Shown: positions 12,745 to 58,392, numbered from the stretch's first letter. The stretch: DNA of 64,000 nucleotides from Nitrospirota bacterium (GCA_963818475.1 CAWFSF010000006.1:2016001-2080000); one strand, 5' to 3'. The notes: generated by a model from the sequence alone, not told the origin. Numbers and translations are program-made.

Positions 12745-12754
12745 ACTATTCACC

Positions 12755-12886
12755 AAAATTCCAATTTCCAAATAACAAATCCCAAATAATAACCAAATTC
12801 AAAACTTCAATTGCCGAAACGTTTGGAAATTGATGCTTAGCGCTTGGCATTTATTTGTGATTTGCTATTTGTGATTTGGTGTTTGC
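12755..12886. repeat. heptamer-built palindromic intergenic repeat
   Basis: AAATTCC/AAATAAC/AAATCCC units, central AAACGTTT, then GATTTGG/TATTTGT units; similar copies at 50425-50558 and 58285-58386. Confidence 0.75.
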
Positions 12887-40529: not shown

Positions 40530-41938
40530 CTATGCGGGCTGCTTATGCTTACGGTATTCCAACGCCTTTCTGACCATGGCCTTCGCCCACTGGGGTGTAC
40601 CGAGTGCATGAAGATGGGTATACGCCGCCAGCACATTTTTATAGACCAGGCCGTCACCCGTTCCGTTGATGCCGCCGCCTCGCGTTACATGATATGCCAT
40701 TGGCGACAGGCTGGTCAAGATTCACGATCCTCGAATAGTGAAATTCGTGGCCTCTTATGATCACGCCCTTGTCAAGGAAACGTGTTCTCGGCAACCGTTT
40801 CGAGTACCGTATAGCCATGCGCCTGCGGTTTTTTTTCAAGAACAAAATCAGCCGGCAGCACCGCGGTCATGGGATAGATCTCGTTTCGCCGACCGTGAGG
40901 CTCCTGCCAAGATAGATCAGGCCACCGCACTCTGCATAGATGGGCAATCCCTTCTCAGCCGCAGCCTTTACCGACCGGCAGAAACTTTCGTTCGCTGCCA
41001 GCTCTGCGGCCTGCGTCTCGGGAAATCCGCCGCCAATATAGAGGGCGTCGAGATCGGGAAGTGACCGCATCGGTCAATGCGTTGATCCGAACTGAATCCG
41101 GGCACCTTGCTGCTCGAGCGCTTCCAGATTATCAGGGTAGTAGAACTGAAAAGCAGAATCCCGAATGACCCCGATGACCGGCTGATCAGTCTTCCGGTCG
41201 CTTCCGGCAGGGTGAAACTTCTGCCGGAGCATCGATCGCCTGTGATGCTGCTTGCAATATCCCAAAGCGTGCCCAGGTCCAGATATCGCTCGGCAACTGC
41301 CGCTGATGCCTGTATGGCCTGCTCCACGTCGGGATGCTCTTGAAAGGGCGTGAGCCCCATATGCCGCTCGGGGAATTCGCCCTTCCGCTGCCGGGGCACA
41401 GCACCGACAACCGGAATACCGCTGCTCTGTTCAATGGCCTTCCGGATCACCGTTTCATGCCTGCCCGGTGAAACATTGTTTAGAATCACGCCCCCGATCT
41501 CAACCTCGGGATCATAGTCTCGGCAGCCGAGAACCACTGCAGCGACCGTACTCGATGCCTTCGTGCAATCAACGATCAACACAACCGGCGTTCGCAAGCA
41601 ATGTGGAGAGACGTGCCGTACTGTACGTTCCAGACTCATCGACACCGTCGATAGAGACCACGATTGCCTTCGATAACTGCTGCGTCGCACCCGGCGGCAT
41701 GACCGACGAAAGACCGAACGAGCGGTTCACGATCCATCATAAAAAGGTCGAGATTGTAGCACGGCCTTCCTGCTGCAGCTCCGAGCCACCCGGCATCGAT
41801 GAAATCCGGGCCTTTTTTAAATACCGCAATGCTTCTGCCCAGCTTCCGCCAGGCAGCAACAATGCCGAGCGTCAGAAGGTCGTTTTACCCGACCCTCCGC
41901 GCGTGGCTGAAATTACCAGCCTCGGCATCAATCGGCAT
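40530..41938 (-). CDS. dsrN: DsrN, CbiA-like siroheme amidase (multiple frameshifts)
   Basis: [72 protein letters not shown]. Confidence 0.88.
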
Positions 41939-42260: not shown

Positions 42261-43335
42261 CTATTCCCACTTGAAGGTCGGGGTCATTCTGAACGTCTCA
42301 CGTGCAAAGGTGAAATCGTCGATATGCTGATAGGTGAACGGTATACCGGTCATCTTGAAGAAGCGCTCCCAGCCGATCCGCTCGATCCACTCGTCCAAAG
42401 CGCTCATGCTTCTTGGCATCCTTGGCGTAGACCTCTACCAGGTGCTTCACGGCCTTGACGACTTCCGGCCAGCGCGGCGGATTGTTCGGAAGGAACGGGA
42501 TGGCCAGCCGCGACATGCGTGCCGGACCGCGTGCGTTCGAAACCTTGCCGCCCACATAGATGGAGATACCGTCGCCAGTGCGCATCGGCGAGCGGGAGGG
42601 ACGGGCACATGGTGTAGCAGTTGCCGCAGTACATGCAGCGCTCTTCCTTGATCTTCACGGACTTCGCCGCCGGATTCGGGCGATAGCGCCGGTCGGGCAG
42701 GAAGCGATGGTCGTGGGGATCTCGCACTGGTTCGCGATGGTCGCCTCGTTCACCTTCGGCGGCTTGCGGTGAATACCGAGGATGGCGATGTCGGAGCAGT
42801 GCACCGCACCGCACATGTTGAGGCAGCAGGCAAGCGCGATGCGGACGCGTGCCGGCAGGGTCTTGGTGGTGAAGTATTCATGCAGCTCATCCATGACGGC
42901 CTTCACAACACCCGAGGCGTCCGTTGCCGGTGTGTGGCAGTGGATCCAGCCCTGGGTATGCACTACGTTGCTGATACCGTAGCCGATGCCGCCGACCAGA
43001 TGACCACGCTTCTTGAGCTCGGCCTGGAGCGGATCGACCTGTGCTTTGTCCGGGAAGAACTCGATGTTGTTCCGCGTCGTGAAACGAAGATGGCCGCCGG
43101 AGAACTTGTCGGCAAGTTCGCATATCTCGCGGATAAAATCAGAGCTCACGAGACGGGGCGATGCCATGCGCACGGTATACAGCTCGTCGCCGGTCTCGGA
43201 AACGTGCTTCATGGTGCCGTGGTTGATCTGTTCGTGATACTTCCATTTCCCGTAGTTCTTCGCGATCACGGGCGGCAGGAATTTGCTAAAGTGAGGAGCT
43301 CCAATATCTGTTATTCTCTTAGGTTTATCAGCCAT
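42261..43335 (-). CDS. dsrB: dissimilatory sulfite reductase beta subunit (frameshifted)
   Basis: [66 protein letters not shown]. Confidence 0.97.
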
Positions 43336-43355: not shown

Positions 43356-44536
43356 TTATTTCACGTCGTCTGCTGACCAGAATACGTACGGGTTCGATCT
43401 TGGGGCTTTCACCATCTGCGGCACGGGCGGCAGACCAGTTGATTCGAGCATGGATCTCATGCCAAGACGGTCAACAAGTTCGCCGATACGTTCGCGGTTC
43501 TTGCCATGGTCATCCCACCATTCCCAGAGCTTGCGGATAAGGTCCTCAAGGTTGTCGTACGGTGCTTCAAGCTTCATGAAAGGAACGATGACCCAGCTCA
43601 TGAGGGCACCGGTCACGATCGGGGCTTTGCCGCCGAGCATGATGGTTGCACCTTTTTCTTTGCCCGGGCGAAGCGCCTTCGGCATCTGATTGATGCAGTG
43701 CATGCAGCGGTTGCAATCCTTGTCATTGATCTTGAGCACAGCAGCCGTCGAAGCTCATGCACTTGGTCGGGCACATTTCGACGATTTCGGTCTTGATATC
43801 CATTTTTGAAGCATAGTTCTTTACTTCTGCTGCATCGATACGGATGGTGTCTCTCCAGGTGCCGATGATGGACATGTCAGCGCGGGCGATCGGCAGCGAC
43901 GCAGTCGTTGGCGCAGCCGGAAACCTTGATCTTGAACTTGTAGGGGAACGCGGGACGATGGAGCTCATCCTGGAACTTGTGGGTGAGCGTATCGCAGATC
44001 TCCATCGAGTCGATGTTCGCGAACTCGCAGCGGGACATACCTGCGCAGCAGCTCGGGGTGCGGAGGCAGGAGCCGGAACCGCCGAGATCCCAGCCCTTTG
44101 CCGTTGTTTCAGCAAAGATGGACTCAAGCTTGTCGGTCTGCGTACCGAGGAGGACCAGGTCGCCCGTGGAGCCGTGGAAGTTGGTCAGGCCGCTGCCGTA
44201 TTTGTCCCAGATGTCCATGAGATCGCGAAGAGCGCTCGTTGTATAGTAGAAACCGGCAGGCTGGTTGATACGGACGGTGTGGAAATGAGCGACACCCGGA
44301 TATTCTTCGGGAAGATCGCAGTAACGGCCGATAACGCCGCCGCCGTAACCAAGGACGCCGACGATGCCGCCGTGCTTCCAGTGGGTCACCTTGTCACGAT
44401 AGGAACGCTCAAGGATATTGAGCAGGTCTTGCGCGGTGTTGCTCTTCTTTGCGGACTTCTTGATCTCTTTTACGAAACTCGGCCATGCGCCTTTTTCCAG
44501 TTCATCAAGCATCGGTGTCTTTGCATCTTTGCTCAT
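43356..44536 (-). CDS. dsrA: dissimilatory sulfite reductase alpha subunit (frameshifted)
   Basis: [77 protein letters not shown]. Confidence 0.98.
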
Positions 44537-46140: not shown

Positions 46141-48120
46141 TTATACGACTTCGCCATGCGGCGTAGCAAAGGTCCCGCGGCGTGCGGCCATATCCATGAG
46201 CACGCGTTCCGTGCCAAATGCACCCTGTTCGTATTTGCGGATCTTCAGCTTTTCTCTCGCCGTGTCGATGAGCTTCAGCGCGAGTTCAAGGATCTTGCCA
46301 GGGTCTTCCTCGAAATAGAAGCCTGCCGTCACCATATCCCACCACTTGTTTTCCATGATATCGGTAAGCGTTTTGCTTGCGCTGACCGGCGATCCGGCGC
46401 CAAAGATGATCGGTACACCGGATGCTGCAAAGTAGGTGCCGATGGCGATGGCCTTTTCGCTCATCCACTCCGGACCGATACCGACCGCAGGAAGACCGCC
46501 GATGTCGTCGCCGAGACCGCCCGCTTCAGCGATATGAGATGCGATGGTCAGGATACGCGAGTTGTCAACGCAGGAACCGAGATGAAGCACCGGAGGAATG
46601 CCGATGGCCTCACAGACCTCACGAAGACCGGGGCCGGCGTTTTCAAGAGCCATCTCAGGCGTCATGTAGCCTGCCTTGGCCGAAGCATGGGCCGAGCATC
46701 CGGTCTGGACCACGAGCACGTCGTTCTTAATGAGCTCGCGGGTAAGAAAATTATGAATGCTGTCCTGGCTAATGCGGGGGTTGTTGCACCCCGCCAGGCC
46801 GACAACGCCGCGGATACGGCCCGCAATGATGGCATCGTTCAGCGGCCGATAGGAACCCCGGTACTGTCCGCCCTGCATGTATTCAATATATTCATCAGAG
46901 AACCCGGCGATCATGTCCGCGGGCTTGACGTTGGCGTGAGCAACATCTTCCTTTTTGCGGTTCGGGAAATTATCGATCGCGAGACGAACGACTTGTTTGG
47001 CCTGATCCAGGGCATGGTGCTCATCATATTCAATATGCACCGCATCTTTCATTTTGCCCTTATTCGTCGTCGTAACGATCTTGGTGTGGTATTTTTTTGA
47101 AAGCTCACCGATTGCAGGCATGATGCACTGCACGTCCACCACCATGGCCTCTACCATACCGGTTATGATGCCGAGTTCCTGCTGCAGGAATCCGCCGGCG
47201 GTGTCGATGCCGTGGCGGACAAGGATCTCGTTCGCGGTGCAGCACATGCCCACGAGGTTAACCCCTTTGGCACCCTTGGACTTTGCATATGCGGTGATCT
47301 CCGGGTCCTCCACCGCAACAACCAGCATTTCGGCGAACGACGGTTCGTGACCGTGAACCACGAGGTTCACATGGTCTTCCTTGAACACATCAAGGCTGGC
47401 CCGGGCCTTGAGCGGTCTGGGAGTGCCGAAGAGGATGTCCGAAATATCCGTCCCCATCATGGAACCGCCCCACCCGTCCGCGAGCGACGCGCGCATGGCG
47501 CCGAGCATGATATTGTTCACTTCCTGGTCCACACCCATGGTCGTGCGGTGCATCATTTCCACGACTTCACGGTCGATCGCGCGCGGCGCGATGCCGAGCT
47601 TCTTCCAGATCTCCTGACGCTTTTTGGGCGCCCGGGACAGGTAGGCGAGCTCTCCCCGCTGCTGACCGAACTGTTCGAGAAATTTCAGCGCCACCTTCTC
47701 GGCAACTTCGTTCACCTGTTTACCCTCTACATCGATGCCAAGGTAACCGGCAACGCGGTTCAGTTTGCGAACGTCCTTGATCTTGAAATCCTTGGCTTCA
47801 CCACGCGCTACGGCAAGAAGCGTGTTCGCCAGGTCTCTGGCGTGATCGGAATGCGCCGCAGTGCCCGCGGCGACCATACGGGCAAAATTCCTCGCGGTCA
47901 CGACCGGCAGCGATGCGCCGCATACACCCATGGCCTCGTCTTCCTTGCCAACCAACCGGCAGGGTCCCATGTGGCACATCTTGCAACAGGCGCCTTGGTG
48001 ACCGATGGGGCATGGTTTCAGCTTTTCAGCCCGTTCAAATGAAGTCTCATACTTTTTCAGTCCGGCAACTTTGAGCAGTGCCTGGGCACCGGGATCAACG
48101 GATTTTAGTTCTTCTTTCAT
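46141..48120 (-). CDS. cooS: anaerobic Ni-containing carbon monoxide dehydrogenase catalytic subunit
   Basis: CPIGHQGACCKMCHMGPC; C-cluster ligand motifs HGHEP, MCCTANE, DVQC, GCNNP, TGCS, GSCVDNSR. Confidence 0.96.
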   Translation of the reverse strand: MKEELKSVDPGAQALLKVAGLKKYETSFERAEKLKPCPIGHQGACCKMCHMGPCRLVGKEDEAMGVCGASLPVVTARNFARMVAAGTAAHSDHARDLANTLLAVARGEAKDFKIKDVRKLNRVAGYLGIDVEGKQVNEVAEKVALKFLEQFGQQRGELAYLSRAPKKRQEIWKKLGIAPRAIDREVVEMMHRTTMGVDQEVNNIMLGAMRASLADGWGGSMMGTDISDILFGTPRPLKARASLDVFKEDHVNLVVHGHEPSFAEMLVVAVEDPEITAYAKSKGAKGVNLVGMCCTANEILVRHGIDTAGGFLQQELGIITGMVEAMVVDVQCIMPAIGELSKKYHTKIVTTTNKGKMKDAVHIEYDEHHALDQAKQVVRLAIDNFPNRKKEDVAHANVKPADMIAGFSDEYIEYMQGGQYRGSYRPLNDAIIAGRIRGVVGLAGCNNPRISQDSIHNFLTRELIKNDVLVVQTGCSAHASAKAGYMTPEMALENAGPGLREVCEAIGIPPVLHLGSCVDNSRILTIASHIAEAGGLGDDIGGLPAVGIGPEWMSEKAIAIGTYFAASGVPIIFGAGSPVSASKTLTDIMENKWWDMVTAGFYFEEDPGKILELALKLIDTAREKLKIRKYEQGAFGTERVLMDMAARRGTFATPHGEVV

Positions 48121-48246
48121 GAGTGTGGTAAACTCCTTTCACATGGAGGGAACGGTCCCTCGTACAAAGCTTATGTATTATACGAAAATACACTTAAAAA
48201 ACCAGACTAAGTTCGTCTACAACGGTTCCGCGCCTGTGCCATGCAT

Positions 48247-50406
48247 TTATTTCTGCAGGACCGGCTGCTTGACTTCCATGACCGTGACCACGGCCGATCT
48301 GGAGAGCAGACCCTGGTTCATGGCCAGAAGAAGTATTGTCGTGGATATGCCATAGGGCTTTCCTGCTGCTGCTTTGACAGGCATTAACGCTCCAGCTGCG
48401 ATCTTGCCGGTTTTTGCCTTCTTTACGAGCGAAGAAACGTCCTTTGCACTGATCGCTTTGGTCTTACTCACCGCCGCCGATATTACTTCGGCGATCTCAG
48501 CGCCGTCCTTCGCATCACCGGCAGCAGACTGCGCCTGGGCAAAAACCTTCTGCTGGCCATAGGTGGTGATGATCGTGCCTTGTTTTTCGTAAAGGGCGGT
48601 CATTGGAAGCACCAGATCGGCCTTCTCGGTAAGTGCGTTCGCATGGCTCGCCTGAACGATCAGCGTGCCTGCCTTAAAATCACTATCCGGCACGTTGCCG
48701 GCAACGAACAGTACACCCATTCCGGACTTCATTGAGCCGTAGTTCTTTCCTGTTTTCTTGATCGCGGAAAAGCCCGGGCCCAGATCGGAAAGGCAACCCA
48801 TCTGCATGACACCAAGCGCATTCGCCTCGAGCATAAGCGGCATGACGCCGGCATTCTTCAGATTTGCGAGGTTCAGGGCCTGGAGCGATGCATCTTCGCT
48901 GGCCGAAATACCGGTGCCGAAGATGACCACGGGCTGCTTGGCTGCTGCATAGGCTTTTGCTGCCTCAACGATCTTTTCAACAGGTACGCCGCTGACCGAG
49001 GAGGCTTCGTCCGCAGCCACAAGATCTTTTTTGAGTGCTTCAACTTCTTTCGGTTTGGTGGTCAGACCCTCGGCCAGGGCCGCAGACATAACACCGGCCA
49101 GAAGCGCCGTATCCGTCCCCGGCTTCAGTTCAAGATGAATAGCATTCACATGGGTGGTAAGCCCGATCTTATCGGGGTTCACAACGATGATCTTTGCTCC
49201 TGCCTGCGCCCTGCGGCGGATCATGACGTCGATCTCCTGGAGCGACTGGCCTTTCTGCGACGGATCAGCGCCGATCACCACAACACAGTCGGCGGCTGCA
49301 AGGTCAGCTTTGGAGGCAATGGCAATGCCGTTATCACCGTAGACGGCACGCAGCGCAGCGATCGCGCCGCCCGCGTAGGCCGCTGCCGGCGTGCTGATGT
49401 TGGGGCTCCCGACAACATCGCGGGCCAGCAGCTCGAGCGCTGCAGCCTCTTCATTGGTAAGTGAACCTGCAACGATGAATCCGGCGCTGTCTCCGGCCTT
49501 CTTGAGCGCATCAGCCGCGATCTTCGATGCATCTTCCCAGGTTGTGGGAACCAGTTTGTTGCCCTGTTTTTTCATCGGCGCGGTGATCCGGTTCACTGAC
49601 GCAAGCGCATCGAAGCCGAAACGGCCGATGGCGCAGATATAACCATTGCTTTCTTTGGTGTTCACTTTAACGATACGGCCGTCCTTCTTGCTCACCACGA
49701 CGCTGCAGCCCGAAGCGCAGGCAGTGCAGACCGATTCGGACTTATCGAGGTCCCACTCCCGGCCATGCTGCCAGCGGTCGCGTTCCATGATCGTGTTCAC
49801 CGGGCAGGCTTCGACACAGGAACCGCAGAAGGTGCAGCCCGACTCATGGAGCGGTTTGTCCTGGGCCGTCGATACCTTGGTCGTGATGCCGCGGCCCATG
49901 AAATCAAGCACGTTCGTACCCTGCTCCTTGCAGACCCGTACGCACCGACCGCACAGGATGCAGTAGTTGTTGTCGATCGTGATGAAGGGGCTTTTATCGT
50001 TCAGCTCATAATTAAAACTCTTGCGGCCGAAGGATGACTCCCGGATGCCGAGATCGGCAGCATAGCGCTGCAGGTCGCAGTCGCCGGCCTTGGGGCAGGT
50101 CATGCAATCGAGGGGATGGAAGGAAAGCACCAGGTCGGTCACGAACTTCCTGATTTCCTCGACCTTGGGGGTCTTGGTCTGGACCTTCATGCCTTCCTTG
50201 GTCCTGGTCGTGCAGCCGGTGACGGGCGTCCTCATGCCCTCGATCTCGACCATGCACATACGACAGGCGCCCACGCCGCGCAGTTCCTTGATATGGCACA
50301 GGTTCGGGATGTGCACCCCTACGGTCGCGGCCGCATCAACAAGGGTCATACCCTCGGGAACAGAAACGGCCTTGCCGTCAAATTCCATATTTATCATCTT
50401 CATCAT
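48247..50406 (-). CDS. NuoG/HydA-like multi-Fe-S subunit with molybdopterin-oxidoreductase fold
   Basis: 2Fe-2S (GACRMC), HPLDCMTCPKAGDC, CILCGRCVRVC, CTFCGSCVEACP, CTACASGC...C; no H-cluster motifs and no obvious Mo-ligand Cys. Confidence 0.85.
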   Translation of the reverse strand: MMKMINMEFDGKAVSVPEGMTLVDAAATVGVHIPNLCHIKELRGVGACRMCMVEIEGMRTPVTGCTTRTKEGMKVQTKTPKVEEIRKFVTDLVLSFHPLDCMTCPKAGDCDLQRYAADLGIRESSFGRKSFNYELNDKSPFITIDNNYCILCGRCVRVCKEQGTNVLDFMGRGITTKVSTAQDKPLHESGCTFCGSCVEACPVNTIMERDRWQHGREWDLDKSESVCTACASGCSVVVSKKDGRIVKVNTKESNGYICAIGRFGFDALASVNRITAPMKKQGNKLVPTTWEDASKIAADALKKAGDSAGFIVAGSLTNEEAAALELLARDVVGSPNISTPAAAYAGGAIAALRAVYGDNGIAIASKADLAAADCVVVIGADPSQKGQSLQEIDVMIRRRAQAGAKIIVVNPDKIGLTTHVNAIHLELKPGTDTALLAGVMSAALAEGLTTKPKEVEALKKDLVAADEASSVSGVPVEKIVEAAKAYAAAKQPVVIFGTGISASEDASLQALNLANLKNAGVMPLMLEANALGVMQMGCLSDLGPGFSAIKKTGKNYGSMKSGMGVLFVAGNVPDSDFKAGTLIVQASHANALTEKADLVLPMTALYEKQGTIITTYGQQKVFAQAQSAAGDAKDGAEIAEVISAAVSKTKAISAKDVSSLVKKAKTGKIAAGALMPVKAAAGKPYGISTTILLLAMNQGLLSRSAVVTVMEVKQPVLQK

Positions 50407-50424
50407 AGCATCCTCCGTGTAAAG

Positions 50425-50558
50425 CAAATTCCAAAATTCAAATTACAAATCCCAAATACTATCCAAATCTCAAAATCCAATGACTGGTCTAAACGTTTGG
50501 GGCTTGATACTTGGTCATTGGTGCTTATTTGTAATTTGGTGCTTGGGATTTGGTGCTT
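50425..50558. repeat. heptamer-built palindromic intergenic repeat
   Basis: AAATTCC/AAATTAC/AAATCCC units, central AAACGTTT, TTGGTGC/TTGGGAT units. Confidence 0.75.
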
Positions 50559-50561
50559 GTT

Positions 50562-51168
50562 TTAAACAGGGCATGTCCCGACCACATGCCGTACCGGCTT
50601 CGCGGGCTCTTCCTCGACCGTCGGGGCGGCTTCGTAAATATAGACCGCACCCTCGGGACAGACCTTTATACATTCGCCGCAATGGGTGCAGCGTTTCTGC
50701 CTGATGCGGTAGGGCGTGAAACCCGTTTTATAGGGTTGTTTCTTCTGGCCCTCAATGGCGAAGTCCTTGCACACTTCACGGCACTTGTCGCACATGGTGC
50801 AGCGGTTCGCATCGATGTTGTAGGAAACGAGGGCGGCGCATTCATTGATCGTACAGACCCCCTGGACATGACGTTCAAGCAAGCGCGGCATGGTCGTTCA
50901 GAAAGGCGGCCAGAATGTCGGCGTGGTCTTTGCCCTTCTTGCACATGCCGCCGTCCTTCACATCAACAGCGATCCGTTTGAGCTGTGCGATATGTTTTGT
51001 CACGCCCTTGCCGGCCTGGATCGTCTCGAAGATCTTTATGGCGTCGTAGATGCCGAGTTTGCAGGGATGGCATTTGGAGCACATGCCGTCCTTGGAGTCG
51101 TCGTTGTAGAATTTCTCAAGCTTGATTCTCGTCAGGTTGACCGGGCACTTACTTTCTTGCTGCGACAT
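50562..51168 (-). CDS. Fe-S protein resembling the isolated C-terminal part of NuoF/HydB (frameshift near 50880)
   Basis: MCSKCHPCKLG...GMCKKG...ERHVQGVCTINEC...CTMCDKCREVC...CTHCGECIKVCP. Confidence 0.8.
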
Positions 51169-53050
51169 GGGCCCCTCCTTTTTCCACGACAATGGCCCTA
51201 GTGGGACAGACGGTGTAGCAGGCCTTGCACTTGGTGCAGTAGTCCTGGTCGATGAAGAACTTGTCCCGCAGTCTCGACCACCGCGTCGAAAGCGCAGGCA
51301 GTCTTGCACATGCCGCAGAGGATGCAGTGTTCGGGAAGGATGCGGAAGGTCCCGAGTCCCTGACAGCGTTTGGCCCGGCAGAACTTGTCGTTCACATGCT
51401 CTTCATATTCTTCGCGGAAATACTTGATCGTGGAAAGCACCGGGTTCGGGGCGCTGTTGCCGAGGCCGCAGAGCGATCCGGCCACGACCATCTTGCCCAT
51501 TTTCTCAAGCAGCTCGATATCGCCTTTTTCACCCTGTCCTGACGTGATTTTGTCCAGCAGTTCGTACATCTGCCACGTGCCGATCCTGCAGGGCGGGCAC
51601 TTGCCGCAGGACTCGCTCTTGGTAAAGGACAGGAAGTACTTGGCCACGTCCACCATGCAGTCGTCCTCGTCCAGCACCACCATGCCGCCGGAGCCCATGA
51701 TCGAGCCCACCGTCGCCAGGGTGTCGAAGTCGACCTGCATGTCGAGGAACTGGGCAGGGATGCAGCCGCCCGACGGTCCGCCGGTCTGGACCGCCTTGAA
51801 CTGCCTTGTCCGGGTTCAGCATGCCGCCGCCGATGTCGAAGATGATCTCGCGGAGCGTGATGCCCATGGGGACCTCGATGAGGCCCGTGTTCTTGATCTT
51901 GCCGGTCAGGGCGAAGACCTTGGTGCCCTTCGATTTCTCGGTGCCGATCGAGGTATAGTAGTCAAGCCCCTTGGTGAAGATCGTCGGGATGTTGGCAAAG
52001 GTCTCGACGTTGTTCAGGTTCGTGGGCATGTTCCAGAGGCCGCCGGCCGCTTCGGAGAGCCGCGGAGGACGGGGACGCGGCATGCCGCGTTCGCCTTCGA
52101 TGGAGGCAACAAGAGCTGTTGATTCGCCGCAGACAAAGGCGCCTGCGCCTTCCTTGATCTCCATGGTCGAAATCGAGGCCGCTGCCCAGGATGTTCTTGC
52201 CCAGAAGCCCCATCGCCTCGGCCTGTTTGATGGCAATGCCGAGGTTCTTCACGGCAAGGGGATACTCGTGCCGCACGTAGATATAACCGAATTGCGCGCC
52301 GATAGCGAAGGCATTGATGATCATGCCTTCCATGACGGAATGGGGATCGCCTTCCATGAGCGCGCGGTCCATGAACGCGCCCGGATCGCCTTCGTCGCCA
52401 TTGCAGACCACGGCCTTGATCTTGGCGCCCGATTTCTTGGTATGCTCCCACTTGAGCCCTGCCGGGAAGCCTGCGCCACCGCGACCGCGCACGCCCGACT
52501 TCTTGACGATGTCGATGACCTCGTCGGGCTTCATCTCGGTCAGCACCTTGGCCAGGCCGGCATAACCATCCTCGCGGATGGAGTCGTAGATGTTGCAAGG
52601 GTCGACGATGCCGTTCTTATGAAGCGCCAGGCGTTTCTGTTTTTTGTAGAACGGGATGTCCTGCATGGCCACATTGGGCTCAGCAAGCGGGACCTCGCGG
52701 TAGAGCTGCTTTCGGTACGGCACGCCCTGCAGTACAGATCCGGAGAACAGGGCAGGAATATCAGCCACCTTCACCTTCTGATAAAAGGTCTCCTGCGGTT
52801 CCTGAACAACGACCGGGCCGCGCTGACAGAACCCCTGGCAGCCGGTCTTGACGATCTCGAGGTTCTCACCCTTTGCCGCGGCTTCTTCCTCGAACTTCTT
52901 GACAAGCTTGTTCGAACCCGAGGCCTGGCATGCCGTGCCGCAGCAGACCCGGACCCGGTGAGTGTCCTTCTCTTTACGCTCGTTCTGCAGTTTGGTGCGA
53001 AGGGCCGCGAGCTCGGCAACGCTGTTTAGCCGCTTAAACGTGAGTTCCAT
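51149..53050 (-). CDS. HydB/NuoF-like FMN/NADH-binding subunit (frameshifted)
   Basis: CCGTAC...[55 protein letters not shown], two C-terminal 4Fe-4S motifs. Confidence 0.92.
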
Positions 53051-53524
53051 GTTCACTCCTCGCCATCGCAATGATATCATCCACCATCTTCGGCGTAAGC
53101 TCGCCGTAGAGGTCCTGGTCATTCACCGTGGCTACCGGTGCCAAGGCGCAGCAGCCCACGCAGCCCACGGTCTCAAGCGTGACCGAACGGTCAGCCGTGG
53201 TCTCGCCTTGCTTGATGCCCAGCTTGGCTTCCATCTCGGTCAGCACGTCCTTGGCGCCCCGCACATGGCACGCCGTACCCATGCAGACCTTGACGATGTT
53301 CTTGCCCCGCGGTTTGAAATGGAAGTGTTTGTAGAACGAAGCCACGCCATACACGTTGTTAATCGAAAGAGACATGCGGTCCGCAGATCATCGTCATCGC
53401 ATCCTCGGGCAGATAGCCCACCTTCTCCTGCACCCGCTGCAGCACAGCAATGAGCATGCCTCGCTGGCCTTGTGCATCGTCGAGGACAGTATTAACCTTC
53501 TTTCAGATCTTCTTGCTCGAGCAC
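53034..53524 (-). CDS. HydC/NuoE-like 2Fe-2S subunit (frameshifted)
   Basis: LQRVQEKVGYLP, VYGVASFY, VCMGTACHVRGA, GCVGCCALAP. Confidence 0.9.
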
Positions 53525-53902: not shown

Positions 53903-55157
53903 ATGAGCATTCTGGCAATGATCCTTGCAGGCGGCAAGGGAGAACGGCTCCACCCCCTCACGATTCACCGGGCAAAACCGGCCGTGCCCTTTGGCGGCAT
54001 TTACCGCATCATTGATTTTACCCTGTCAAACTGCATCAACTCCGGCATCAGGAAGATCGCTGTGCTCCCCCAGTACAAATCCCTCTCCCTGGACAAGCAC
54101 CTCCGCATGGCCTGGAACTTCTTTTCCGGCGAACTGAACGAATTTATCATATCGGTGCCGCCCCAGCAACGCGTGGGTGACAAATGGTACCAGGGAACGG
54201 CCGATGCCATCTACCAGAACATCTATATGATCGAAAAGGATGCTCCGGACCACCTGCTGGTGCTCGCTGGCGACCACATTTACAAGATGGACTACGCGGA
54301 AATGTTCAAGTTCCATAAGGAACACCATGCCGATGCAACGGTCGCGGCCATCGAGATCCCCCGGCAGAGCGCCACCTCCTTCGGCGTCATTGAGGTCGTT
54401 GATGACTTCCGAATAGTAGGATTCGAGGAAAAGCCGCAGGGAACCGAAGCACATCCCGGGCCGCCCGGACACGGCCTTCGCGTCCATGGGCATCTACCTG
54501 TTCAATACGAAGACCCTCCTGGAATATTTGAAATCAGATGCGCTCCAGGATACGTCCCACGATTTCGGCAAGAACATCATCCCCCAGATGATGAAGACGT
54601 CACGCGTCTGCGCCTACAACTTTAAGGATGAGAACAAGAAAGAAGCGAAATACTGGCGCGATGTCGGCACCATCGACGCCTACTGGGAAGCGAACATGGA
54701 CCTGGTGAGCGTCGATCCGCAGTTGAACCTGTATGATGGAGCATGGCCCATCCGCACCTATCAGTCCCAGAATCCTCCGGCCAAGTTCGTCTTTGCCCAG
54801 GAAAAAAAAGGCGGCAGGCTCGGCATCGCGCTCGACTCGATCGTTTCGCATGGGTGCATCGTGAGCGGCGGCCGTGTGCAGAACTCGGTGCTGTCGCCGA
54901 ACGTGCGCGTGAACAGTTACAGCGAGGTACATGAGTCAATTCTCATGGAGAACGTGGACATCGGCAGACATTGCCGCATCCGGAAGGCCATCATTGACAA
55001 GGACGTGATCATCCCGCCGGAGACCGAGATCGGCTATGACCTTGAAGAGGACAGGAAGCGTTACCACGTGACGCCATCGGGCATCGTGGTCATTGCCAAA
55101 GGAACGGAATTGCCGGAGGAGGCGAGAGCATCAGCCATGGCGGAAGAGCGGATATAA
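53903..55157 (+). CDS. glgC: glucose-1-phosphate adenylyltransferase (frameshift near 54440)
   Basis: LAGGKGERL...[48 protein letters not shown]. Confidence 0.95.
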
Positions 55158-58284: not shown

Positions 58285-58386
58285 AAATCACAAGCACTAA
58301 ATAACAAATAAATTCCAGGCTCCAATCGGCAAATTACAAACGTTTCGGAAATTGGCTGTTGGATATTGAGCTTTATTTGGGATTTG
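58285..58386. repeat. heptamer-built palindromic intergenic repeat
   Basis: AAATCAC-AAGCACT-AAATAAC units, central AAACGTTT, TTGGGATTTG. Confidence 0.7.
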
Positions 58387-58392
58387 CAATAG

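Follow-up and report, generated by a model that had tools for sequence, protein, structure and literature searches.

A Nitrospirota gene cluster for a probable soluble CO dehydrogenase complex with five subunits, of the Bfu family

We describe a cluster of five genes, bfuC-bfuB-FeS-bfuA-cooS, in a 64,000-nucleotide (nt) stretch of DNA from an uncultured sulfate-reducing Nitrospirota bacterium (GCA_963818475.1, CAWFSF010000006.1:2016001-2080000), which is referred to here as the window. The cluster probably encodes a soluble, five-subunit carbon monoxide dehydrogenase (CODH) complex of the Bfu family that serves the carbonyl branch of the Wood-Ljungdahl (acetyl-CoA) pathway, and the six frameshifts that interrupt three of its genes are best attributed to the assembly. 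CooS, the catalytic subunit of the CODH, is linked in this cluster to a flavoprotein module which itself lacks a catalytic centre, and the linkage persists through a rearrangement of gene order across the Nitrospirota.

The window belongs to a 7-contig, 4.66-Mb bin that is 91% complete and 6% contaminated (labelled G000), and all coordinates refer to the whole 64,000-nt stretch. All five genes are encoded by the minus strand and span 53524 to 46141, in an order established by a Pfam scan and frame translation. An earlier, sequence-only reading of the window had reported five co-oriented, closely spaced genes (nuoE-like, nuoF-like, an extra Fe-S gene, nuoG-like and cooS), and the domain scan of the minus strand recovered all of them where they had been placed. 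The genes are real, but the first three do not have open frames, since the nuoE-like, nuoF-like and Fe-S genes are broken by six insertions that the earlier reading did not mention. The features are as follows:

53034..53524, minus strand: bfuC, NuoE/HydC-like, with a thioredoxin-like 2Fe-2S domain; frame interrupted by one extra nt each at 53500 and 53385
51149..53056, minus strand: bfuB, NuoF/HydB-like; frame interrupted by one extra nt each at 52166, 51802 and 51272
50562..51168, minus strand: gene of the Fe-S subunit, a copy of the HydB tail (N3-type 4Fe-4S plus 2x4Fe-4S ferredoxin domain); frame broken by a 1-nt insertion at 50880
50425..50560, minus strand: intergenic spacer between the Fe-S gene and bfuA, with a palindromic ATTTGGN-type repeat element
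48247..50427 (start at 50406 or 50427), minus strand: bfuA, NuoG-like, 719-726 amino acids (aa), intact; assigned by Pfam domains and motifs
46141..48120, minus strand: cooS, intact, encoding the 659-aa catalytic subunit of a Ni,Fe CO dehydrogenase; assigned by TIGR01702 and PF03063
46088..46122, minus strand: terminator-like hairpin and T-run, 19 nt past the cooS stop codon

The ends of the first three genes, and likewise the spacing, were derived by hand from a three-frame translation. The bfuC, bfuB and Fe-S genes overlap one another by approximately 20 nt, and gaps of approximately 155 nt and 126 nt precede bfuA and cooS, respectively. The hairpin that follows cooS (46122-46098) has an 11-bp stem with 6 G-C pairs and a loop of 3, and is followed by the T-run. 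In order to read the broken genes, intact orthologs were taken from G005, a short-read genome of the same genus as G000.

The Bfu family was defined by Schut et al. 2022 (PMC9304861). In that paper, BfuB is defined by IPR011538, IPR019554, IPR019575 and IPR017896, and BfuC by the NuoE-type thioredoxin-like 2Fe-2S domain (IPR002023). The G005 ortholog of BfuB carries PF01512, PF10531, PF10589 and Fer4 families, all of which are found piecewise in the window, and the G005 ortholog of BfuC matches PF01257 with 170 bits. We take the InterPro entries to be equivalent to the Pfam families scored here. The 634-aa BfuB ortholog consists of an N-terminal thioredoxin-like 2Fe-2S domain, a Complex1_51K domain that binds flavin mononucleotide (FMN) and NADH, an SLBB domain, an N3-type NADH_4Fe-4S domain and a C-terminal 2x4Fe-4S domain; the long HydB architecture that had been read from the window is thus complete in the intact ortholog. 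Its best solved relative is 7t2r_B, HydB of the bifurcating NiFe-hydrogenase HydABCSL, with 719.6 bits and an end-to-end alignment of residues 34-621 with residues 7-594. Further down the ranking come HydB of bifurcating FeFe-hydrogenases, a tungsten aldehyde oxidoreductase (9mqx) and Nfn/Stn-ABC enzymes. The strings GDPGAFMD and IIFDIGGG are present in the NuoF-like protein, as had been observed. The link of both strings to bifurcation is taken from the sequence-only reading, and GDPGAFMD recurs in a second HydB-like gene of G000.

This second HydB-like gene, located on contig C6 near 2303396-2305700, adjoins a 699-aa NuoG-like paralog that is 40% identical to BfuA across the N-terminal half, and the pair is probably another HydABC-type enzyme. 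An N-module of respiratory complex I (NuoEFG) was considered for the window genes and rejected. The NuoF model matched with 461.7 against a cut-off of 558.65 and the NuoG model (TIGR01973) with 343.8 against 470, with one NuoE model barely passing (146.4 against 141), and the neighbours of the cluster are HlyIII, dsrAB and glgC, with no membrane-arm genes.

BfuA contains a 2Fe-2S domain, a His-ligated 4Fe-4S domain, two 4Fe-4S domains, a Molybdop_Fe4S4-type 4Fe-4S domain and a molybdopterin-oxidoreductase-like domain that lacks the cofactor. Five ligand sets are invariant: C37/C48/C51/C65, H97/C101/C104/C110, C149/C152/C155/C201, C159/C191/C194/C197 and C227/C230/C234/C258. The 2Fe-2S and 4Fe-4S ferredoxin-type domains that define a BfuA are present as Fer2_4, NADH-G_4Fe-4S_3 and Fer4 families, and the protein matches 7t2r_A, a catalytically empty HydA, over its full length. 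In alignments with the paralogous FdhA of related genomes, Tyr or Ala stands at the selenocysteine column, Ala or Tyr lies opposite the ligand Cys of FdsA, and BfuA proteins of a second gene order (described below) have a 12-residue deletion at the selenocysteine column. The Pfam scan of BfuA yielded no PF01568 hit, and TIGR01591 covers only positions 2-348 of its 672-position profile. A molybdenum- or tungsten-dependent formate dehydrogenase (Fdh-Bfu Type 1) was therefore rejected for want of a selenocysteine or cysteine ligand and of a complete fold for the bis-pyranopterin guanine dinucleotide cofactor. An [FeFe]-hydrogenase HydA was likewise rejected, as the Pfam hits include no H-cluster domain and hydrogenase models match only the N-terminal Fe-S part. 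The NuoG-like subunit is accordingly as had been reported, with five Fe-S motifs, no H-cluster and no Mo ligand. Both the H97/C101/C104/C110 and the C227/C230/C234/C258 sets are kept in a BfuA that has no catalytic domain, which is the pattern of Type 3 Bfu enzymes; the naming of these two motifs as clusters A3 and A5 is our reading of the text of PMC9304861. Judged by its sequence, the window system fits the definition of the Bfu family and the Type 3 pattern.

The extra gene encodes a protein of 201-209 aa that is read in a single frame in the relatives. The protein reproduces the final ~170 residues of HydB, matching positions ~416-596 of HydB/BfuB chains, and carries PF10589 and Fer4 domains with 15 Cys and 1 His invariant in 51 sequences of the subunit. 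Its structural model had a predicted local distance difference test (pLDDT) score of 79.3, and each of the top 10 Foldseek matches was the B chain of a bifurcating enzyme (TMq 0.48-0.72). Of the Nitrospirota genomes sampled, 145 out of 401 encode an ortholog (E <=1e-40), and these represent 88 of 162 genera; nearly all members of several families have one, and other families returned no match (0 of 76 in one of them). In six genomes of another Nitrospirota family, the same HydB-tail module is fused to the C-terminus of BfuB in a 900-aa open reading frame (ORF), within a cluster that consists of bfuC, the long bfuB, bfuA and three 2-oxoacid:ferredoxin oxidoreductase (POR) genes, porGAB, and contains no cooS (L139:5856-13843; also L137 and L138). 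Because the module is naturally fused to BfuB in this paralogous cluster, the free-standing Fe-S subunit appears to belong to the Bfu complex.

The cooS product matches TIGR01702 with 599.6 bits (cut-off 478) as well as PF03063. Residues C37, C45/C46, C49, C54, C67, H258, C294, C332, C445, C475, C517, H90 and K556 are fully or almost fully conserved among 44 sequences, and presumably stand for the B-, C- and D-cluster ligands as numbered in C. hydrogenoformans CODH-II. The complete set of C-cluster ligand motifs that had been attributed to CooS is thus retained, with its Cys and His positions invariant. The window CooS is 67% identical to acsB-linked CooS and 47% identical to the one remaining CooS of G000. 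The latter resembles the D. vulgaris CODH, matching 6b6v with 776 bits, and is encoded by an orphan gene on contig C2 (L136:8441-10378; G000:C2:799441-801378). No Fe-S, cooC or flavoprotein gene was recognised beside the orphan cooS. At its C-terminus the window CooS has a tail of ~33 aa (46141-46240) with the pattern KYE.G.FG.ERVLMDMAARR ... PH, which is kept in both gene orders. The tail is absent from the matched solved CODH chains, where matches end near residue 626, and from the second CooS of G000; it is a possible docking element.

The surroundings of the cluster were surveyed in the best 80 of 333 matching stretches from species-representative genomes, all of them Nitrospirota; 15 of the 80 loci were uninformative owing to contig ends. 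In the window order, cooS directly follows bfuA in 39 of 39 informative loci. In the second order, cooS-bfuC-bfuB-FeS-bfuA, which is found in metagenome-assembled genomes (MAGs) labelled Thermodesulfovibrionia, cooS directly precedes bfuC in 26 of 26. A survey of synteny had been proposed as a check on the cluster, and with both orders pooled, cooS is beside the module in all 65 informative loci. Within the family of the window genome, a BfuA ortholog of at least 68% identity occurs in 19 of 24 genomes, and the same five-gene order was found in 18 of 18 family loci fetched, which partly overlap the 80 and of which two are cut by contig ends. The relatives include bin UBA9217 and many MAGs from groundwater and sediment. 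Several variations were observed among second-order loci: BfuB can end in a pair of CBS domains (779 aa; L117:4967-7306), and some loci have several extra kb between bfuC or bfuB and the Fe-S gene. One locus, L029, has two tandem copies of bfuB.

The link to the acetyl-CoA pathway comes from the second order, in which acsB is the gene immediately before cooS in 18 of the 19 loci with room for it, with a CdhD gene ahead of acsB. This acsB carries the CODH_A_N, CdhC and ACS_CODH_B_C domains. Because the same cluster stands directly behind acsB in related Nitrospirota, a Wood-Ljungdahl role becomes likelier for the window cluster as well, and the window CooS is the best candidate for the Wood-Ljungdahl CODH of its genome. 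The absence of an adjacent acsB, cooC or cooF, which had been read from the window, was borne out: the only acsB of the genome is on contig C2, and no CooF- or CooC-type ORF was found among the scanned neighbours. One ORF of the window, 40968-41690, was considered as CooC and proved to be CobB/DsrN-like instead (cobyrinic acid a,c-diamide synthase family). The contig C2 locus (L135, G000:C2:349000-368000) contains acsCD and acsB with no cooS beside them. It also contains a second NuoE/NuoF pair, fhs and a selenocysteine FdhA with an in-frame TGA, and all of these genes are heavily frameshifted in G000. The spacing from acsB to FdhA recurs in the family, as judged from coordinates, and acsB is present in 28 of 30 family genomes. 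By comparison of the two orders, the cooS-bfu genes appear to have moved away from acsB in the family of the window.

Based upon these findings, we propose that CooS would interconvert CO and CO2 at its Ni,Fe C-cluster, and that its B and D clusters would pass the electrons on to an iron-sulfur relay. This may be formed by the three-cluster HydB-tail subunit, by the five-cluster, catalytically empty BfuA (through its fifth and His-ligated clusters), or by both, and would lead to the BfuBC core, where electrons could be exchanged both with ferredoxin and, at the FMN, with NAD(H). The analogous case of NiFe-HydABCSL suggests flavin-based bifurcation or confurcation according to 2 CO + NAD+ + 2 Fd(ox) <-> 2 CO2 + NADH + 2 Fd(red), where Fd is ferredoxin. 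Known CODH/acetyl-CoA synthase (ACS) enzymes draw electrons from free ferredoxin. The CooS described here would be the CODH partner of ACS in the carbonyl branch, with the module either drawing on both NADH and ferredoxin for the electrons that CO2 reduction costs, or harvesting both carriers upon acetyl-CoA oxidation. We infer the physical complex, the order of the relay, the bifurcation and the direction in vivo. The sequence-only reading had proposed an electron-bifurcating CO:NAD+/ferredoxin oxidoreductase with CooS as catalytic input. Of this proposal, the tie of CooS to a Bfu-type module without a catalytic centre is upheld by the conserved adjacency and the match to 7t2r_B, and the bifurcation and docking remain predictions.

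Several observations weigh against the proposed complex or one of its parts. Bifurcation is not required thermodynamically and depends on low in-situ CO, because CO (-520 mV) lies below both NAD and ferredoxin in Table 1 of PMC9304861, where scavenging is the purpose proposed for the coupling in Codh-Bfu. The coupling would also fit a CODH that acts on channelled CO in CODH/ACS. The sequence criteria that separate bifurcating from non-bifurcating HydB proteins are the classification of that one paper. In the window order acsB is beside neither cooS nor the module (0 of 44 loci), and the link to ACS in this order therefore rests on orthology; in the family of the window, acsB is instead followed by a second NuoE/NuoF pair and the selenocysteine FdhA. 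No cooC was identified beside either cluster, the only candidate being a weakly MinD/ParA-like ORF near acsCD. Finally, the source reads of the assembly were not found among public runs, the best of which shares 0.23 of words.

It is rather unlikely, in our estimation, that the complex is real and does not bifurcate, acting as a plain CO:NAD+ (or NADH:CO2) oxidoreductase or using its ferredoxin-type clusters as an internal wire only. At -520 mV, CO can reduce NAD+ and ferredoxin with no energetic coupling, and enzymes with NuoEFG-like subunits that do not bifurcate are described (PMC9304861). The BfuB found here nevertheless keeps both the N-terminal 2Fe-2S and the C-terminal 2x4Fe-4S domains, which the available text of that paper reports in all bifurcating enzymes and as absent from non-bifurcating homologs, and its nearest solved relatives are all bifurcating enzymes. 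The two halves of the cluster could also be neighbours and not partners, with CooS working with AcsB and free ferredoxin while BfuCB-FeS-BfuA is a separate redox-balancing enzyme that has another third partner and is only regulated together with the acetyl-CoA pathway. The same doubt is voiced for Codh-Bfu in PMC9304861. The module is moreover portable, because a paralogous module with the same Fe-S element pairs with POR genes, and neither the Pfam scan nor the neighbour scan revealed a CooF-type adaptor. We consider this arrangement improbable nonetheless, since BfuA has no catalytic site and the module thus needs a partner, cooS stays adjacent through the rearrangement of gene order, and the conserved C-terminal tail of this CooS clade is missing from the stand-alone CooS of G000.

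The frameshifts bear on whether the flavoprotein half is functional in the organism at all. The operon was aligned with relatives G003 (89.8% nucleotide identity), G005 (84.6%) and G016 (79.0%), and all six single-base insertions in coding sequence (53500, 53385, 52166, 51802, 51272 and 50880) are exclusive to the window. The open part of bfuC covers only positions 42-143 of the PF01257 profile, in comparison with positions 2-143 for the 162-aa ORF of G005. The bfuB gene is carried as consecutive pieces in three frames, with its Complex1_51K domain split across two of them (profile positions 1-97 and 94-149). Were the insertions real, the flavoprotein genes of the G000 organism would be decaying into pseudogenes, a reading that we regard as very improbable. 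All six lie within the first 3 kb, none in the 4.1 kb of bfuA and cooS, and the source reads could not be mapped to the stretch. There are, however, only single-base insertions, with no stop codon or deletion, and each piece of the three broken genes retains 82-99% amino-acid identity to the relatives. Among the matches listed, metagenome contigs of relatives, from four public runs other than the source, lack one base at five of the six sites, including 53385 and 53496; the sixth site, near 52166, is outside those matches.

The same type of insertion is widespread in the assembly. From ~300 kb of G005, 227 long ORFs were taken, 144 of which matched G000 at 65% identity or more; the frame changed at least once in 54 of the 144, with 70 events that are nearly all a net gain of one base. 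At the DNA level, over a length of at most 175 kb, 289 frame-breaking indels were counted after de-duplication and removal of compensating gap pairs, and 222 of these are insertions of 1 nt in G000, although some alignment artefacts may persist; the resulting rate of 1.65 per kb is rough, as the aligned length is inflated. The genes dsrA, dsrB, glgC and acsB are broken in like manner, with examples in the window at 43877-44536, 42655-43335 and 53903-55157. Clustering of the six insertions was dropped as a sign of decay, since 3-kb stretches with at least six events are common in this assembly. Because like insertions occur genome-wide, the relatives are intact and identity is kept, the six frameshifts are almost certainly assembly errors as far as can be judged from these comparisons. 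Single-base insertions occur throughout the assembly, and gene calls on it therefore need a frameshift-aware reading.

The sequence-only reading had further suggested that the complex possibly feeds sulfite reduction, and a complex that oxidises CO in order to supply the dissimilatory sulfite reduction encoded ~1.6 kb downstream was weighed as a further alternative. Genes resembling dsrA and dsrB and a DsrN-like CobB gene (40968-41690) do lie downstream on the same strand, and NADH or reduced ferredoxin can ultimately reach sulfate respiration. Between cooS and these genes, however, are the terminator-like hairpin, a gene for an HlyIII-family membrane protein and a promoter-like site ahead of dsrA. 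Furthermore, of the 27 window-order loci with 15 kb or more of sequence, only 2 have a dsrA-like gene close to the cluster, and these two belong to the genus of the window; in other lineages the cluster is part of an acs operon. The suggestion was therefore abandoned: a supply of sulfite reduction is hardly credible as the function of the complex, and by these comparisons the proximity of dsrAB seems local and recent, and offers no support for a dedicated link.

The spacer between the Fe-S gene and bfuA (50425-50560) forms a predicted hairpin of -32.8 kcal/mol (z -2.77). Its repeats are of the ATTTGGN type with a 7-nt period, for which there are 21 pattern matches in the window against 6.8 expected, and 45 nt of the spacer are exclusive to the window, the three relatives lacking those bases. 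Similar palindromic repeat elements occur in the window at 12754-12879 and 58329-58387, and approximately 25 clusters of ATTTGGN-type repeats were found across the genome. Metagenome contigs stack on the spacer element at a depth far above that of the flanks.

Among known systems, the cluster most resembles the electron-bifurcating hydrogenase NiFe-HydABCSL of Acetomicrobium mobile (7t2r/7t30), which in PMC9304861 is the prototype of the Type 3 Bfu enzymes. In addition to the end-to-end match of BfuB to its HydB, the likeness of BfuA to the empty HydA extends over the full length and includes the His-ligated motif and the fifth motif, Cx2Cx3C...C, and in both systems a separate catalytic subunit handles the third substrate. 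The partner here is CooS, whereas there it is the NiFe small and large subunits; the system described here also has the extra HydB-tail subunit, comes from the Nitrospirota and is known from genes alone. The paralogous bfuC-bfuB-bfuA-porGAB cluster of Nitrospirota resembles the predicted Por-Bfu enzyme, which PMC9304861 reports from Chloroflexi, and shares the HydB-tail module, there fused to BfuB, with a different partner enzyme. The CODH subunits of CODH/ACS entries (6ytt, 9fzy, 1mjg) match the window CooS with 604-607 bits; they differ in that the solved chains lack the ~33-aa tail, and in the family of the window acsB is elsewhere in the genome. In the CooS-CooF-FNOR clusters (PMC6344411) a Ni-CODH is likewise genetically linked to a pyridine-nucleotide flavoprotein, but that protein is FNOR, an FAD-dependent NAD(P) oxidoreductase, in place of the NuoF/HydB-type FMN protein found here, and NuoE- and NuoG-like subunits are absent.

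The concept of a Codh-Bfu enzyme is already in print. Schut et al. (PMC9304861) predicted it from 4 Firmicutes sequences, in a survey that, according to the available text, left out metagenomic data, and assigned it to Type 2, in which BfuA lacks A3 and A5 and genes for CooS and a CooF-type protein lie between bfuB and bfuA. A version from Sporomusa, 'CodhABCSF', is stated as not purified in the available portion of a later article (PMC12318220, PNAS 2025). These enzymes share with the window system a Ni-CODH that is predicted to feed a BfuABC core, with CO as the third substrate. The published Type 2 pattern differs from that of the window, where BfuA keeps all five motifs, including both that are missing from Type 2, and the string includes a gene for a HydB-tail subunit but none of CooF type; cooS stands outside the bfu genes at one end of the string, and acsB lies upstream in sister lineages. 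The Type 3 form with a HydB-tail subunit, no CooF and an acs context is, in the best reading of the sequences, a variant of the published concept. NuoE/F/G-like COGs have also been noted among the neighbourhoods of Wood-Ljungdahl-type Ni-CODHs (Inoue et al. 2019; PMC6344411). Papers on these Nitrospirota treat the acetyl-CoA pathway at the level of markers only. The terms NuoE/F/G, HydB, NADH and bifurcat do not occur in PMC13056359, and the available portions of PMC5861303, PMC7325909, PMC11238625, PMC6085454 and PMC11996240 hold nothing relevant. Our search of the literature found no published description of this Nitrospirota arrangement; it did not extend to supplementary tables, such as Table S1 of PMC9304861, which may list further Codh-type clusters.

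We suggest tentatively, as a possibility well short of probable, that anaerobic Nitrospirota have hard-wired the CODH of the acetyl-CoA pathway to a bifurcating module, with the HydB-tail subunit as an adaptor for partners of very low potential (CODH and 2-oxoacid oxidoreductase) and the CooS tail as the docking element. If so, NADH and ferredoxin would each bear half the cost of reducing CO2 to CO, and the reverse reaction would generate both carriers from acetyl-CoA oxidation. In a complex that works as proposed, NADH would replace part of the scarce low-potential ferredoxin that CO formation consumes, and the energy bookkeeping of the Wood-Ljungdahl pathway would be altered in sulfate reducers that are widespread in sediment and groundwater. 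On the same condition, the cluster would also be a first example of the hypothetical Codh-Bfu enzymes from outside the Firmicutes and of Type 3, and would provide a defined five-gene target.

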